Source of the DNA: an uncultured delta proteobacterium
GTDB lineage: Bacteria > Desulfobacterota > Binatia > Binatales > Binataceae
NCBI GenBank assembly: GCA_963724765.1
Contig: CAVRVY010000003.1
Location: 352,001-416,000, forward strand
DNA length: 64,000 nt
Reading direction: 5' to 3'
The notes below the pieces were generated by a model. The model did no database searches. It saw nothing but the letters and a program-made list of their open reading frames with translations, and was not told where the DNA came from. The position numbers and the translations under genes are program-made. Shown one piece after another: positions 36,804 to 43,061 of this stretch (position 1 is the stretch's first letter; each line of letters opens with the position of its first letter).

Positions 36804-37286
36804 ATGGCACGGGCAGGTTTTTACGCCGTCGAGTCGGGCAAAATCTCTTTTCGCCGCGACGGCAACTGGTATAGCGACGACGAGCGTATCGATAACCCGC
36901 GTATCGCGCTGCTGTTCAGCCGCAGCATCCGGCAAAACCCCGACGGCAGCTACTATCTCCAGGTCGCCGAGGAGCGCGCCCCGATTACCGTCGAGGACAC
37001 GCCCTACGTGGTCAAGGCGATCGACGGCGACGCGCACGGCGGCTTTACCGTAGTGCTCAACGACGAGGAACGCGAGGAGCTTGACCCGGCCACGCTCGAG
37101 GTCGGGCCCGACAACGTGCTTTATTGCCGGGTCAAGGGCGGCGCCTCGCGCGCGCGCTTCCTGCGCAACGCCTATTACCATCTGAGCCCCAGCTTCGAGG
37201 CCGACGCGCGCGGCGGCTTCTCGATCTCGACGCGCGGCCGGCGCTATCCGCTTTTGCGCGCGGGCTTTGCGGGCACGAACCATTGA
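36804..37286 (+). CDS. DUF1285 family protein
   Basis: DGNWY...I...LF, ITVEDTPY, YCRVKGG...ARFLRNAYY. Confidence 0.78.
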   Translation: MARAGFYAVESGKISFRRDGNWYSDDERIDNPRIALLFSRSIRQNPDGSYYLQVAEERAPITVEDTPYVVKAIDGDAHGGFTVVLNDEEREELDPATLEVGPDNVLYCRVKGGASRARFLRNAYYHLSPSFEADARGGFSISTRGRRYPLLRAGFAGTNH

Positions 37287-37333
37287 GTCCGTCGCGCGGT
37301 CCGCAGTCCGCGATTCGGTACCCGCGCGATCCG

Positions 37334-37846
37334 ATGGCCGATTTGACCATCCCGATCTTTCATATCGTGCTGGTGCGGCCCGAGATTCCGCAGAACACGG
37401 GATCGATCGCGCGGCTGGTGGCGGCAACGCGCGCGCGGCTGCATCTGGTCGGCCCGCTCGGTTTCTCGCTCGAGGACCGATATCTCAAGCGCGCCGGACT
37501 CGACTATTGGCCCCTGGTCGATCTGAAGACTTATCCCGGATGGGACGATTTTGCGCCGCCCGAGTATCTGCAACCAGACCGGCCATCCACCGAGCGCGAG
37601 CCGCGCCTGAAGTATTTCTCGGCGCGCGCGAAGAAGTCATACCTGGAGGCCGATTTCGCGCCGGGCGACTTCCTGGTGTTTGGCAGCGAGACCAAGGGGC
37701 TGGGCGAGGAATTTCTGCGCGCGCGGATGGAGGCGACATACAAAATTCCGATCTTCGAGCCCGGTGTGCGCAGTCTCAACCTGGCCAACGCCGTGTCGAT
37801 CGTGCTCTATGAAGCGCTCCGCCAGACCGGCCGGCTTATCGAATAG
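37334..37846 (+). CDS. trmL: tRNA (cytidine(34)-2'-O)-methyltransferase
   Basis: PEIPQNTG, RAGLDYW, FGSETKGL, RSLNLAN. Confidence 0.94.
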   Translation: MADLTIPIFHIVLVRPEIPQNTGSIARLVAATRARLHLVGPLGFSLEDRYLKRAGLDYWPLVDLKTYPGWDDFAPPEYLQPDRPSTEREPRLKYFSARAKKSYLEADFAPGDFLVFGSETKGLGEEFLRARMEATYKIPIFEPGVRSLNLANAVSIVLYEALRQTGRLIE

Positions 37847-38312
37847 CCGCCGGAGCGCCGGGCGCGCGAATTCCGGTGTCGACCCAGATGTCGAGCCGCG
37901 TCTCGCCACCGGGGCTTATCGTCACCATCGCGGGCAAATTCCTGGCCGCGCCTGAAAATCCGCCGCCCCGCTCAACCCGGTAGTCGCCCGGCGGCAGGGC
38001 CAGACGATAAAGCCCACCGGCGTCAGCGCGGGCTGTCGCTACCATGGCGCCTTTGGAATCGAAGATCTTAAGCTCCGCGCCGGCCGCGCGCGCGGACGGT
38101 GGCGCCGTGATGCCGGGGCCGCTGACCGGAGACGTCGGTCCGCGCGTGATTCGTCCGGTCAAAGTGCCATAGGACGCCGCTGTCCCATTCGAACGGCCGG
38201 CGGCACTTGCGGACCTGCCGTCGCCCCGTGTGCAGCCCGCAATTGCAAGTGCGACCGCCACCACCACGCAAAGCAGTAGCTCGCGGGCGCAAATCGAAGT
38301 GATCGCCTCCAT
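37836..38312 (-). CDS. Lipoprotein with carboxypeptidase-regulatory-like (prealbumin-like) domain
   Basis: Lipobox IAGC; GTLTGRITRGPTSPV; ADAGGLYRLALPPGDYRV; DTGIR. Fused to the upstream gene in the ORF track only through a frameshift. Confidence 0.7.
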   Translation of the reverse strand: MEAITSICARELLLCVVVAVALAIAGCTRGDGRSASAAGRSNGTAASYGTLTGRITRGPTSPVSGPGITAPPSARAAGAELKIFDSKGAMVATARADAGGLYRLALPPGDYRVERGGGFSGAARNLPAMVTISPGGETRLDIWVDTGIRAPGAPAAIR

Positions 38313-38373
38313 GCGCACGAGCCTATCGCATCGAGACCATGACTGCCCGCGCGCGGCGCGTCGAGTAGCGTGG

Positions 38374-40170
38374 CTACGGCTGGACCGGGCTGCTGAAGCG
38401 TTATGGCCGATCGCGGTGCGATAGAAGGCGGCGCTTTTCGACGACTCGCCGGCGAACCAGAATGACGCCTGTGTTCCCGGCGTCAGATCGAGCGAGGCCG
38501 CCGTGTAGTCGCCCCAGCGATTAATATTGTTGCTATCGAGAAGTACATACGTGGCCAGGCCACTCTGGAGGAAAAAGCCGCTGTCGTGCATCGTGCCCAG
38601 CGCCTCGGTCGCGCGGTTGGTCGCGTAGGCCGACGAAGGAAAGGTGCCGTCGTCGGAGTAGTTGAATACCACCAGCACGTTGCCCTCGGGGTCGGGTTGG
38701 ACCTCAGGATAAAACGTCGCGCCGGTGCCGTCGCCCTGGCCGGAGGCGCAGGCCCAGCAGACCTCGTTCAGGATGCTGGCGCCGACGATTTGCGGACATT
38801 TGTTCAGGTAACTGCCCGTGCACTCGTTATCGTTGTCGTTGAGCACCGGCCGTATCTGGAACCAAAGAAAATGCGAGGCTCCGGCGCCCGCGCCAGTGCC
38901 GTTGGTGTCGAGCGCCGCGTAGAGCGACCCCGACGCATAAATCACCTCGCCCGGGACGCGGGTATCGGCCGGTATCGATGAGACAGTCGCCGAGGGCGCA
39001 TTGGGGCTGCTGTGCGCCCGGGGGAAGAGAATAGGTGTCAGAGGTGGTTACCAGGACTTGCGAGACTTCCGGCCCAGGGTCGGCGGGGTTGGTGCTAAAG
39101 ACCGGATTCGATATCGCAAAGATCGCCACGTCGGAGCATCCGGTGGCGCAACCGTAGCCGCCGGCGGCGTTGATGTTGTGCGAGGTGACGACGAACTCGG
39201 CGCGCGGGTTATCGGTGCGATCCATCACGTTGGCCGGCTGCAGCGAGTCCATCACTTCGTTTGTACCAAGCGTGAAAAAGTTCGGCGTCAGGGCGAAAAA
39301 GTTGAAGGTCGCGCCGGCGTACATCGCGCTCTTGTTCAGCAGCAGCATGAAGGCGCCGTTGAAGATGTCGGCGGGTACCGTGAAAGCGTTGAAGCCCAGG
39401 TAAATTATCCGGCGGTCCTGCCCCAGCGTGGGAAAATCCGCGATTTGACTGGTTGATAGAAGCGGGGTCGCGCCGGCGGTCAAGTTGAAATGGTAGATGA
39501 ACCATCCGCCCAGCGGACTGGAGGACTGGCTCACCGCCACGTCAAGGAACGGCGCTCCCGCCGCGCTGATATGCGCGGCCGACACGATGTAGCGCTGGCT
39601 GGCCCAATCGAAGAGCGCGCGCGGATCGAAGGGCGGCTGCTGCGCTTGGCGCCCACCAGCATGAAAGAGGCAAGGCTCTTGGGGAAACCAGCCTGCCCGC
39701 TGCCGTTCTTATCGAACACGCTCACGCAGCCATTGATCACCTGCAGCACAAAACTCGGCCCGGCCGCCAGCGCCATATCGGGCGGGATCTCATGCCCGCA
39801 ACCTAATCCGAGGCCGCCGAAGGCCGTGATCTTCGTCGCCGCCGGACCGGGGGCTGGCGTCGGCGCGGGGCTCGCCACGAGGAGCGGCTGCGCGGCGGCG
39901 CGTGAGGGCGTCGCGAGCTTAACGGTCGTGGACCGCGCCTTTAGCGCTGCGTATTGCTGGATCGAAATTCCATACCGTCGTGGACGGGTCGCGGGAGTCA
40001 CCACCGCCTCCTGCTCGGTCATTTGCGGCAGGTCGCCCAGCACCACGACATCCGGCGCACCCTGGCTGACCGCTACCGCGCGCTTTGCGGACTGCTGAGC
40101 GCGTGCGGCCGGCGAGGTCAAAACGAATGCAACTGCGAAGATGGCGGCGAGACCGTAATACCGAGTTCAT
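38374..40170 (-). pseudogene. Secreted 'PPD...RWGDY' family protein, split by about four frameshifts
   Basis: GGAGG RBS + ATG 40170. Pieces joined across frames: signal peptide, IPPDMALAAGPSFVLQVIN, FDPRALFD, DFPTLGQD, LPPGAQQP, DTG, RWGDY. Shifts near 40165, 39640, 38965 and 38398. Confidence 0.78.
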
Positions 40171-40310
40171 CGATCCTCCAATACGCAGAATGGGGGCTTA
40201 AAGATCGACAACGCAGTAACCTTTGTAAGCGCGTGTGGTGGAGCAATCAACCGGGCTGTGTCACTTCGAAGCCTTAGCGAGCGGATCTTGAGCGCCGTAC
40301 TGACCGCAAC

Positions 40311-40342
40311 AAAAAAGCGGGGCCGGAACACTCCGGCCCCGC
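40311..40342 (-). terminator. Rho-independent terminator
   Basis: GCGGGGCCGGA-GTGT-TCCGGCCCCGC-TTTTTT just after the 40368 stop. Confidence 0.9.
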
Positions 40343-40367
40343 CGTTAATTACAGCGGCAGACTCCCC

Positions 40368-42002
40368 TTACTGCTTGACCTTCGCGATCTTGGTACCCCA
40401 GAGGCTCGCGCCCGCAACCCTTTGGTTGGTGATCCAGCCAATGATACTTCCCGAAGTCCCGGTGGAGGAAGTCGCCGGATCGAATCGCGCGGCCGAATAA
40501 TCACCCCAACGTTGGGGACTTGACGCGGCAGGACTGCTATTGCCGCTCAGGCAGACCGCACTTTTTGCCACCGGAGTGGCACTCAGAGACACCGGGCCGT
40601 TGGCGAGCGAGCCGCCAAACAATACCATGGGCTTCAAATTTCCCGTTGTATCGGTCGCAGTCTCGGTTACGAAGATGTCGCCCAGGGCATCGGCCGCGAG
40701 CGATGGGTTGAAGTCATCCGACGTGGCGCTGAGAAAGAACGTACCAGTACCACCCGTAGGAATAGTGTCCGTCGACGGATCGAAGGCGTACCACGTGGGC
40801 ACGGGAAATCCGGCAATCCCAGCCGTGTGGACGCAATAGAGCAAGCCGTCAGTGAAACCGCCGGTCGGAGGAATCTGGTAACAGGCGTTCTGGAAGCGGC
40901 CGTCCAATGTATCGATGGTTTCCGTGCAGCCCGGCTGCACCGCACTGGGCGGTGTAGAGAAATTGGTGCCGGGAATACTGACCGGCCCCGACATAGCGGG
41001 TGAGGTGCTGGCATTGGTCATCGTGTAAAGCGATACCCCACTGCCGGCCACGGCCGCAGCAAAATAGTCGGCCGGGAAGTGTCCATAGAAAGGGGCGCCA
41101 AGCTGAATCGGTGGCATCAACGTGCCGGTAAGCCCGGTGAATATCGGCACGCTAAAGCCTAGCCCGTTGTAGGCGCGCGCCTTCGGAATCGCAAATGCAA
41201 CAGTGGTGAGATAGGTATCGGAACTGTTGTAGACGTTGCCGGTGAATAGCAGAGCATCCTGATCCATTCCTAGATGCGGGTAGTCGAGAAAATCGGGCAA
41301 ACCAAACGCACCGCCGGTGATTCTGTATACGAACCATCCGCTGGTGGCGGAACCGGTCTTCGATATCGCCAACCACAGGTAGCTCTTCGTGAAGTCGTCC
41401 GAGGTCACAACCCATCGCTTCCAGGTGCTGTCGAAGAGGACCTGCACGTCGCCCAGGAAGTCCGATGTGCCAAACAGCGGGTTAAGGGAAGTCCGCGCCA
41501 GAACGTTGCCCAACTTGTCGAAGACCCACAACGAAGCGTTGGTAATCTGGACGACCTGACCGGTCGACACATCCGCATCGTCGTCCGAAGGATATTCATT
41601 GTGCCCGACCGCCCCCTCCACGGCACCGAGAAAATTAACCGCCGTAACGCTGGGGGCCTCGACGCTGGGACTGGCGCTCGGAGCCCTCGATATATTGCTC
41701 GCCGCGTTTGCGGCGGCCTTAAGCGCGGCGTACTGCTGCTGGGGGATGGTAGGCCGCCGCAGCGCGAGCGCAGCAGCAGGGACCGGGCCTGACGGCGCGA
41801 GCGCCGCGTCGGCGGCGATCGCTTCCGGAGTCCGGTCTATCGGGCCGGACGCGCTCACCGTACCTGAGGCGGTTATGCTAGGACCGGCATAAGCTTGAGG
41901 CGCCTCGCTTTGTGCGCGCAGCGAACGCTGGATGGTAAAAACCACCAGCATCGCGACCGCGCTCACCGTCGCCAATAACACCAAACATCTCGAGCGTTTC
42001 AT
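40368..42002 (-). CDS. Secreted 'PSD...RWGDY' family protein, function unknown
   Basis: Signal peptide; YPSD...VQITN, DYPHLGMD, PPSAVQP, DTLDGR, RWGDYS; paralog of 38374-40170. Confidence 0.85.
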   Translation of the reverse strand: MKRSRCLVLLATVSAVAMLVVFTIQRSLRAQSEAPQAYAGPSITASGTVSASGPIDRTPEAIAADAALAPSGPVPAAALALRRPTIPQQQYAALKAAANAASNISRAPSASPSVEAPSVTAVNFLGAVEGAVGHNEYPSDDDADVSTGQVVQITNASLWVFDKLGNVLARTSLNPLFGTSDFLGDVQVLFDSTWKRWVVTSDDFTKSYLWLAISKTGSATSGWFVYRITGGAFGLPDFLDYPHLGMDQDALLFTGNVYNSSDTYLTTVAFAIPKARAYNGLGFSVPIFTGLTGTLMPPIQLGAPFYGHFPADYFAAAVAGSGVSLYTMTNASTSPAMSGPVSIPGTNFSTPPSAVQPGCTETIDTLDGRFQNACYQIPPTGGFTDGLLYCVHTAGIAGFPVPTWYAFDPSTDTIPTGGTGTFFLSATSDDFNPSLAADALGDIFVTETATDTTGNLKPMVLFGGSLANGPVSLSATPVAKSAVCLSGNSSPAASSPQRWGDYSAARFDPATSSTGTSGSIIGWITNQRVAGASLWGTKIAKVKQ

Positions 42003-42367
42003 AGATCGTTCCCCCCGAATTTGGCTGATAGCGAAAGTCTTTCCTCTGACCCCTTTCTCCTTAAGCGGTTTTGAGAAGCATCATCGTTTCAGCCGGACAT
42101 TATCCGACAAAGCGGGTTGACGCAAATAAATTAATGCTAAAAGATTTCTATACAGTTAATTTTATCTAATTCAACGTTTTTCAGTAAATTAGAACGAATC
42201 TAACATATATGGCACAAAATGTAGCGAATTTTCGTATTCTTTCAATAGCGACTTCTGAGACCGCAATTTTCTGCGATATGTTGAGATATCTGCTGAGAGA
42301 ATCGATAAAATAGGTTCACGCGCTTGTGCACCGGCCCACTGGGCGCGCGAGCATCGGGAACAAGCTA

Positions 42368-42676
42368 ATGGGACCGCCACTTCTGCTCCTGCTGATGCTG
42401 GCCACAGCAGTGGTCCCCCATATTGCATGGGCGCAGCCTACGTCCGAAGCTACCCCGCAGAGCAATGCGACGGTCTCTCAAGCAACGGTGGGCGCAGGGC
42501 GCGCGGTCGTCAGGACCCCTGAGGACATTGCGCGGGATCGCAATATTGTGCCGCGGGACGGTACGGCTCGCGAGGTTCCGATCCATCCCACAATCCCGCA
42601 GGATCGCTACCTGAAGTTGAAACAGGGAAGCGCTCAGAGCGCGCCGGATGACCAGAACGGCCCAGCTCGAAAGTGA
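42368..42676 (+). CDS. Small secreted protein similar to the N-terminal pro-region of the 40368-42002 protein
   Basis: Signal peptide ending AWA-Q; RTPEDIARD...PTIPQDRYLKLK. Confidence 0.72.
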   Translation: MGPPLLLLLMLATAVVPHIAWAQPTSEATPQSNATVSQATVGAGRAVVRTPEDIARDRNIVPRDGTAREVPIHPTIPQDRYLKLKQGSAQSAPDDQNGPARK

Positions 42677-42788
42677 GACTTCCTATCTACGTCGCGGACC
42701 ACGCGCAGCGGAGGCGAATCGAAGGGGGCGGCTAAGCTGCGATATAAAGACGCGAACTAAAGATGCGCGCCAGGTTCGAGCCGGGCTG

Positions 42789-43061
42789 CTAGTGACCCCG
42801 CGTCCCGCAGGTCCCGCATCCGCTGGCGCATCCTCCGGCCGCCGCATCCTTCTCGGGTGGCGGGCCGAAGTAGTAGCCCTCTTGTTCGAGCTCGCCGGCC
42901 TTGACCCAGCGCACCGGCGCTCCTATCTCCGTATCGCAATGCACACAGCACCTGCGCTCGCGATCGCCGTCATCGAGGGTTACATGCACCAGCACGACGC
43001 GCTCGCAGGCGGCGCAATGCGCGGTGGGAAAACTCGACGCATTGAGCGACAAATCCTTCAT
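42789..43061 (-). CDS. Small zinc-ribbon protein with Cys-rich C-terminal tail
   Basis: CAAC...CCVHC plus GGCASGCGTCG. Confidence 0.72.
   Translation of the reverse strand: MKDLSLNASSFPTAHCAACERVVLVHVTLDDGDRERRCCVHCDTEIGAPVRWVKAGELEQEGYYFGPPPEKDAAAGGCASGCGTCGTRGH

Follow-up and report, generated by a model that had tools for sequence, protein, structure and literature searches.

Two divergently transcribed genes were examined in a 64,000-nucleotide stretch of genomic DNA from an uncultured delta proteobacterium of the family Binataceae (contig CAVRVY010000003.1, positions 352,001 to 416,000; hereafter 'the window', in whose numbering coordinates are given). The smaller of the two genes appears to encode a real protein of ~80 mature residues, putatively exported by a Sec-type route, that profile comparisons show to be homologous to residues ~40–100 of the 544-amino-acid protein encoded head-to-head with it. 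Conservation across relatives indicates that the small open reading frame (ORF) is a selected gene and no truncation remnant, and the small and large genes form a conserved two-gene unit. The two genes are probably a regulator-and-target pair. A previous sequence-only reading of this DNA had interpreted the small gene as a free-standing secreted copy of the pro-region of its large partner, within an undescribed zymogen and trans-acting propeptide system. The first part of that interpretation is upheld by the analyses described below, in that profile searches, hhalign and ratios of nonsynonymous to synonymous substitution rates (dN/dS) all point to a free-standing, putatively exported and selected copy of the N-terminal module of the head-to-head partner. 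The second part, that of a zymogen or processed enzyme, found no support.

Homology between the small protein and the N-terminus of its neighbour

Pairwise BLASTP of the small against the large protein yields only a match of 8 residues at E 0.13, which is unconvincing alone, and profile methods were therefore adopted. When the small protein was searched with HMMER against the six frames of the 5.4-Mb genome, the top non-self match was the N-terminus of the large protein (E 2.2e-4, with 37% identity over residues 27–94), and the next match followed at 0.62. A hidden Markov model (HMM) of 51 large-family proteins finds the small ORF in the six-frame window at E 2.1e-9; conversely, the large N-terminus is found in the same six frames at E 7.4e-11 by a model built from 14 small proteins. 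A version of the small-family HMM from which the signal peptide was removed still finds the large N-terminus at E 4.7e-9 (next window frame, 0.072). This signal-peptide-free model also matches 25 of the 51 large-family members at E<1e-3, every time at the N-terminus. Comparison of the two family alignments by hhalign gives a probability of 94.7% and an E of 6.4e-8.

The small-family consensus (RTPeDIerDRdIvPqgg.P.EVPNrPTIP.DeYlKLK) and the large-family consensus (RTP..IaaDa.L.PSGPVPA.A...RPTMP...Y.ALKA) are collinear with a single one-residue indel. The motif strings quoted in the sequence-only reading are all present, with RTPEDIARD (motif 1) and PTIPQDRYLKLK (motif 2) in the small protein and RTPEAIAAD and PTIPQQQYAALK in the large protein. 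As had been described, the motifs of the large protein are preceded by a signal-peptide-like N-terminus, judged by eye, and followed by an Ala/Ser/Pro linker at residues 101–117. The string ISIQQYAALK reported for a second paralog was also located, in a fragment at 39531–40121 on the minus strand. Both proteins carry a hydrophobic stretch followed by AWA/Q (small) or LRA/Q (large), where the slash marks the end of the putative signal peptide; this pattern, read by eye, is kept in relatives. The small gene has its own putative signal peptide by this visual reading, and its stop codon lies 17 codons past motif 2, again in agreement with the earlier description.

Evidence that the small ORF is a selected gene

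Relatives carry the same small gene and no full-length third paralog. In the window, no mature-domain remnant follows the small gene, as had been stated: past position 42676, nothing propeller-like was found in any frame at E<=10, bar a noise match (E 3.8) inside an amidase gene. The gene after the small gene is convergent and encodes a protein of 90 amino acids that is 83–96% identical in relatives. A full HMMER scan of 1.84 billion representative proteins returned 13 clusters at E<=0.001, all with lengths of 57–140 amino acids, and no longer protein among these representatives matched the small family at this threshold.

Within the small-family alignment, residues R49, T50, P51, D53, D57, P62, P71 and P77 are invariant down to 32% identity. 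The hydrophobic leader and the position of the stop codon are kept as well, and most members end in ...P(A/Q)(R/Q)K. For the mature part of the small gene, NG86 estimates give a median dN/dS of 0.34 (0.17–0.53) over 27 of the 28 pairs of eight genomes (one pair being saturated), compared with 1.19 and 1.21 when the same alignment is read in frames +1 and +2. The comparison is approximate, because the pairs are non-independent and dS is high (0.38–2.2), but the contrast between frames is clear. These values point to purifying selection, which the sequence-only reading had named as a check on its proposal.

A tree of 22 small-family modules and 25 modules from the N-termini of large proteins (hereafter 'cis modules'), built from 83 columns, has weak resolution. 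All small proteins fall into one group with support of 97/92, together with one intruding long-branch large module. This group stands beside cis modules from a distant subfamily of large proteins (P0025, P0033; here and below, letters with numbers are our identifiers for proteins, genomes, loci and runs) and not beside the modules of its own neighbours. Divergent small subgroups (S_L079/P0071 and S_L016/P0067) pair with divergent large genes (P0019/P0020/L079 and P0016/P0017, respectively). The tree position therefore suggests that the small gene, instead of being a recent copy of its neighbour's 5' end, belongs to an old paralogous lineage that has accompanied the large gene.

Linkage and distribution of the pair

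Within the genus (g1), the small gene is present in seven of 16 other genomes, and these are exactly the seven that carry a large ortholog with 65–81% identity. In all eight genomes (G000 included), the two genes are arranged head-to-head, 250–500 bp apart. In seven of the eight, the small-family profile detects the small gene as well as the large N-terminus; in G136 it detects only the small gene. Two genomes of another genus (G003 and G005) are matched by this profile only at the N-terminus of a 41% identical large homolog, and none of 400 other genomes sampled across the phylum is matched at E<=1e-4. A metagenome scan produced six loci, among which L077, L078 and L079 show the same divergent pair and L082 is cut inside the small gene. 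Stand-alone copies beside large genes, for which the sequence-only reading had suggested a search, are thus found in seven genus relatives, head-to-head, and at L077–L079. Adjacency is kept down to a large-protein identity of ~49% (L079). None of the conclusions depends on genomes G102 and G163, both flagged as unpublished.

At two other loci (L080, 3223–5232; L081, 2502–4511), both genes are on the same strand, the small gene being located 124 nt upstream of a large homolog with 38% identity. This homolog is without the C-terminal blade that carries the RWGDY motif in every frame, and unrelated sequence follows it. The tandem arrangement was dropped as independent support because the two contigs are mutually identical and because their large gene is missing this blade.

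The genes that flank the pair are housekeeping-like and are kept in five relatives with 75–96% identity, and the pair therefore appears as a faster-evolving insert among them. No conserved third gene alongside the pair was found in the flanks of these five relatives.

The large protein and its predicted fold

Pfam searches with the small and the large protein gave no family at E<=0.1, and NCBIfam gave none for either protein. None of 57 homologs of the large protein, one of which is labelled Candidatus Binataceae by its source, carries a Pfam domain, and 51 large-family relatives produced only four single-member chance family matches. No sequence relative of the large protein was found in the PDB, where searches with both proteins and both alignments gave nothing useful, and all 30 of the 30 nearest clusters in the ESM Atlas are unnamed. 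Our literature search found no description of the RWGDY family, of a Binatota beta-propeller or of the pair. Although unnamed and lacking both a Pfam model and a solved relative, the large family is present in several soil phyla.

An AlphaFold2 model of the large protein from 51 sequences has a predicted local distance difference test score (pLDDT) of 88 and a predicted template-modelling score (pTM) of 0.88. Residues 118–543 form 28 strands arranged in seven four-stranded blades, with strand 118–128 closing blade 7. The top match in VIA-align is YncE (3vgz_A; Z 24.1, root-mean-square deviation [rmsd] 3.1, 297 residues aligned), after which comes a long tie of WD40 propellers (Z 21–24), CylK and virginiamycin B lyase; Foldseek agrees. 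Rows within Z 1 of each other are tied, so no relative is singled out among the matches listed. The model suggests a generic seven-bladed beta-propeller whose matches have mixed functions, and no functional assignment is made from the fold.

Constraint on the cis module and its linker

In the full-length model, pLDDT is 87–95 for residues 41–70, 92 for the helix at residues 88–100 and 71–74 for the linker. Residues P84, Y91 and K95 of the cis module are conserved in at least 90% of 51 family members. A regular-expression search detected motif 2 in 38 of 51 large-family members; motif 1 is present in fewer of them. Among seven large orthologs, dN/dS is 0.23 for residues 32–100, 0.17 for residues 56–98, 0.60 for the linker and 0.20 for the propeller, and the median amino-acid identity of the linker is 0.35 compared with 0.70 for the propeller. 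This pattern therefore suggests that the module is as constrained as the propeller and that the tether alone is free to vary. Such constraint would suit a module that stays in place and has a function no less than it would suit a propeptide that is discarded. The linker showed no conserved cleavage motif, and no neighbouring maturation protease was found among the flanks of five relatives.

Predicted binding of the small protein to the propeller

Complexes were modelled with the propeller alone (residues 112–544) and the mature small protein (residues 23–102), each supplied with its own family alignment. The median ipSAE is 0.89 (0.89, 0.82 and 0.91), and the best of three controls scored 0.00. 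The ipSAE mark is reached by 116 of 157 solved complexes and by 2 of 215 mismatched pairs, counts that provide only a rough calibration because self-made alignments were used. Binding, another check named in the sequence-only reading, is therefore predicted with the N-terminally deleted propeller. The runs have at least 60% of their contacts in common, and the pLDDT of the small partner is 51–73.

The lowest-error contacts place a strand of the small protein (residues 43–49) with residues 223–228 and 280–285 of the large protein, which are outer strands of blades 2 and 3. Elsewhere, the small chain crosses the propeller loops at residues 133–140, 171–185, 350–367 and 488–501, and in the model both of its helices touch the propeller, as do its invariant R-T-P, D, P, Y and K residues. 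The interface includes 19 of the 54 invariant or nearly invariant propeller residues versus 75 of the 379 others (one-sided Fisher p 0.011), and its conserved residues include D140, N155, D185, D240, N256, D364, D367, R498 and D501. The model thus places the small protein over the conserved loop face of the propeller. When modelled alone, the free small protein is poorly ordered (pLDDT 62.8, pTM 0.22); its helices at residues 51–58 and 78–89 align with cis-module helices 59–64 and 88–100.

A proposed trans-acting mimic and its alternatives

We hypothesize that the small protein mimics the cis docking module in trans, a reading that we place first and to which we assign about an even chance. 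By this mechanism, the cis module would be tethered to the propeller by a flexible linker of 17–30 residues, and the free small protein would bind, in trans, the propeller site that the cis module uses. The small protein might then mask the propeller, compete for it or help it to fold, and so control access to the conserved propeller face, either in the periplasm or extracellularly. A free copy can be effective at an occupied site only if the cis module leaves that site at some stage, which might occur by opening or by cleavage. A broader version of this hypothesis, which we regard as tentative, is that a widespread family of exported bacterial propellers is gated by its own N-terminal strand-and-helix module, placed over the conserved face, and that one soil lineage has made a duplicate of this module into a separately exported trans-regulator, equivalent to a propeptide-like inhibitor or foldase for a non-peptidase.

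Several points weigh against the trans-mimic hypothesis. The tether would make the free copy a poor competitor for as long as the cis module stays attached and closed, and neither the models nor the sequences indicate its opening or removal. Placement of the cis module at the same site as the trans copy is inferred from homology and pLDDT. Moreover, the small partner is homologous to a segment that is modelled on the propeller anyway, so its passing score indicates retained docking features and not binding in cells; the approximate nature of the ipSAE calibration and of the dN/dS test adds to this caution. No RNA run holding the locus is listed among 19 runs. Finally, some copies of the two genes are damaged. 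The small gene is frameshifted past its signal peptide in G137 and has lost the PTIP...Y segment in G130. Of the large genes, that of G123 is interrupted by an in-frame TAG and that of G136 by a frameshift at a C-run. This damage reflects either assembly errors, for which there is a precedent in that the window itself is one C off the contigs of two runs in a C-run, or a pair that is dispensable. If the damage is real, each partner can be lost alone, which speaks against the small protein being an essential antidote.

The second-ranked explanation is the zymogen system of the sequence-only reading, wherein a cis pro-region blocks or chaperones an enzyme and is cleaved in the linker, and the free copy re-inhibits or folds this enzyme in the manner of the I9 and I29 families. 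Cleavage, if present, would make the system exactly this. The module is followed by a flexible, fast-evolving linker (dN/dS 0.60), and in its predicted position it covers a face with many invariant Asp, Asn and Arg residues, where a selected free copy is sensible only if the cis module leaves. There are also precedents in stand-alone propeptide-like inhibitors (PMC6993865 and PMC4089206) and in a sortilin propeptide that binds within its propeller (PMC9356209). However, we consider this explanation unlikely. The large protein belongs to no enzyme family recognised by the Pfam, NCBIfam and PDB sequence searches or among the chance matches of its 51 relatives, and its fold matches are generic propellers with mixed functions. 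The cis module is also constrained as strongly as the propeller (dN/dS of 0.17–0.23 and 0.20, respectively), with neither a conserved cleavage motif in the linker nor a protease among the flanks conserved in five relatives.

It is somewhat less probable still that the module is a handle for a shared third partner, such as an envelope component, a sorting receptor or a ligand, and that the free copy competes for or adapts this partner and not the propeller. Motif 2 is far more widely conserved in the family than motif 1, as in a recognition tag, and the free protein is largely disordered alone, as are many linear-motif ligands. These features must be set against the confident modelling of the cis module (pLDDT 87–95) and the high-scoring predicted interface between the free copy and the propeller. 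Strict co-occurrence with one ortholog group likewise points to the large protein as the partner, and no conserved third gene accompanies the pair.

Improbable to a greater degree is an arrangement in which each N-terminal module docks on the propeller of the next molecule, by strand donation in head-to-tail oligomers, such that the free module caps or limits the chains. The best-defined contacts do set a module strand against the outer strands of blades 2 and 3 (small residues 43–49; large residues 223–228 and 280–285), and the linker is long and flexible, but a 17-residue linker also reaches in cis and no repeat or fibre-like features were found. The last explanation, that the small ORF is an inert leftover from partial duplication of the large 5' end and is kept by descent only, could draw on homology to the 5' part only, on damage or divergence in two of eight genomic copies, and on confinement to one bacterial family (none of 400 other phylum genomes sampled), but is very hard to reconcile with dN/dS of 0.34 in frame versus ~1.2 out of frame, with invariant residues, signal peptide and stop position kept down to 32% identity, with an old clade apart from the neighbour's module (97/92, with one long-branch intruder), and with adjacency kept to ~49% large-protein identity (L079).

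Comparison with known systems

The Pfam inhibitor or propeptide families Inhibitor_I9 and Inhibitor_I29 are matched by neither protein, given that the Pfam searches at E<=0.1 and the NCBIfam searches returned no family for the small or the large protein. Stand-alone propeptide-like peptidase inhibitors are known from MEROPS families I9 (the Plasmodium SUB1 propeptide-like protein) and I29 (CTLA-2alpha, crammer and BCPI), according to portions of PMC6993865 and PMC4089206. As in these systems, a small free protein is homologous to the N-terminus of a larger exported protein and would act on it in trans. In contrast, the partner examined here is a predicted seven-bladed propeller that matches no subtilase or papain-like peptidase family, and the pair is bacterial, adjacent and divergently transcribed, with cis cleavage only hypothetical.

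The propeptide of sortilin, a Vps10p-domain protein, binds inside its own propeller and blocks some ligands, as stated in a portion of PMC9356209. The likeness would lie in an N-terminal peptide of a propeller protein that binds the propeller; for the large protein, such a cis contact is a possibility compatible with the high cis pLDDT values and the predicted trans interface of the small paralog. Sortilin, however, is a eukaryotic receptor with 10 blades, whereas seven are predicted here; furin cuts the sortilin propeptide, for which no separate gene is known. The sortilin chain 6eho is also a poor Foldseek match to the large protein (TM 0.20). In its supposed way of acting, the pair comes nearest to the I9/I29 inhibitors and the sortilin propeptide. 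It is a member of neither type, because there is no sequence match, the partner is no peptidase, and the propeller has seven blades and not ten.

Steric chaperones and inhibitors can adjoin the genes of secreted bacterial enzymes, as with the lipase-specific foldase Lif and with Mep72/BamI. These systems likewise place a gene for a small exported partner next to that of its target. Unlike the small protein described here, which is a paralog of its target's own N-terminal module, the Lif and BamI partners are not known to be homologous to a part of the target. The propellers YncE (3vgz), WD40, CylK (7ron) and virginiamycin B lyase (2z2n) share the fold of the large protein over residues ~115–544 (Z 22–24, rmsd 2.8–3.2, 281–336 residues aligned). 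Yet their identity is only 6–12% with no shared motifs identified, and the descriptions listed for them mention no docking N-terminal module with a free paralog.

The free module provides a handle on an unnamed propeller family and marks which propeller face matters. The pair also predicts a binding couple that could be produced in E. coli, and it hints at regulation of the family by its own N-terminus. If the trans copy does mask or fold the propeller, the concept of a propeptide-like inhibitor would extend past peptidases to a bacterial propeller, and the small protein would be a prokaryotic counterpart of the sortilin propeptide that is encoded as its own gene. The pair would then also be a clean example of a new small gene that arose from the 5' end of a larger gene and has long been kept.

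Layout of the locus

The spacer between the two divergent genes has a length of 365 bp and a G+C content of 0.45, compared with ~0.64 for the window. On its minus strand it holds two promoter-like (sigma-70-like) sites versus 0.4 expected. Coordinates of the features are collected in Table 1.

Table 1. Features of the divergent gene pair in window coordinates
Feature	Coordinates	Strand	Basis and remarks
Large gene, 544 amino acids	40368..42002	-	ORF; signal peptide, N-terminal docking module, flexible linker and seven-bladed beta-propeller (predicted); RWGDY motif at residues 498–502
Signal-peptide-like N-terminus of large protein, residues 1–31 (...SLRA/QSE)	41910..42002	-	Read by eye; model helix at residues 4–29, low pLDDT
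Cis N-terminal module, residues ~40–100	41703..41885	-	Two short strands; RTPEAIAAD (residues 57–65); PTIPQQQYAALK (residues 84–95) within helix
Ala/Ser/Pro linker, residues 101–117	41652..41702	-	Length and sequence variable; pLDDT 71–74
Seven-bladed beta-propeller (predicted), residues 118–544	40371..41651	-	DSSP strand pattern; structural matches cover residues 112–544
Divergent intergenic region, AT-rich	42003..42367		Holds ribosome-binding stretch of large gene and a block kept in relatives (8-genome alignment)
Small gene, 102 amino acids from ATG 42368 (116 from GTG 42326)	42368..42676	+	ORF; putative signal peptide to AWA/Q at 42433; mature ~80 residues, 42434–42673
Small protein motif 1, RTPEDIARD	42512..42538	+	R49, T50, P51, D53 and D57 invariant in small family; all within predicted interface
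Small protein motif 2, PTIPQDRYLKLK	42587..42622	+	Helix 78–89 in free-protein model; ORF stops 17 codons after motif 2

The GTG start of the small gene would add a basic n-region, and an in-frame stop shuts the frame further upstream; a database protein (P0058) corresponds to the 102-amino-acid form. At L011–L013, L077 and L078, a conserved in-frame extension of ~45 residues (…HMN.(V/I).(H/D)R.(L/I).(L/M)G…) precedes the leader of the small protein. The copy in the window is without this extension, as a stop shuts its frame. The extension of the relatives may represent an elongated n-region or a signal anchor, or else a conserved element that is non-coding. A Tat signal in these long N-terminal extensions was considered and rejected by eye, since the RR pair is not conserved.

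The spacer in the window is ~70–120 bp longer than in most relatives. A spacer block, GACGCAAAT(C/A)AATT, is kept in relatives, as is the C-rich (reverse-strand G-rich) ribosome-binding stretch of the large gene. Logan contigs from four DNA runs over 37800–42800 are identical to the window wherever they cover it, save for one extra C in two of the runs (X2 and X4, both public). This extra C lies in the C-run at 42010–42017, just upstream of the large start codon, and represents either strain variation or an assembly homopolymer error.

Paralogs and the variable slot

A second large-family paralog (paralog 2) lies at 37839–40166 on the minus strand. It is split over three frames (40166–39534, 39708–38830 and 39047–37839, corresponding to HMM positions 16–179, 186–367 and 423–541), and two frameshifts are therefore indicated. 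Intact orthologs with 65–72% identity are present in G126, G131 and G135, which are without the large/small pair; their frames encode 614–618 amino acids, or 476 in G126. Short-read contigs of run X1 span 39690–40126 and 39222–39459 of paralog 2 without indels, with 38802–38968, the stretch of the second frameshift, uncovered. Paralog 2 may be a pseudogene or reflect an assembly error, a choice that these contigs settle only in part. A role for the small protein in serving paralog 2 was rejected because paralog-2 orthologs are present in genomes without the small gene.

An ORF at ~37836–38300 on the minus strand combines a lipoprotein-like leader (…AIAGC) with a CarboxypepD_reg-like domain (Pfam E 2.9e-5, under the curated cut-off). 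It shares its frame with the last piece of paralog 2, and no stop intervenes. All genomes of the genus hold more distant propeller paralogs, with frames mostly of 580–870 amino acids and frequently as two nearby copies (E ~1e-6 to 1e-10 to paralog 2); an example is found at ~304096–311794 of contig C4 in G000.

The region 37124–43061, also represented by loci L095–L105, is a variable slot for propeller-family genes. Its borders are a TrmL/SpoU-like methyltransferase gene (37124–37846) and the highly conserved gene for the 90-amino-acid Cys-rich protein (42789–43061, minus strand). The slot contains the large/small pair in five relatives. Four genus members without the pair hold another propeller-family paralog at the same locus, and paralog-2-type genes occupy the slot in G131, G135, G133 and G127 (two in tandem in G127). 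In the genome of the window, the slot contains both.

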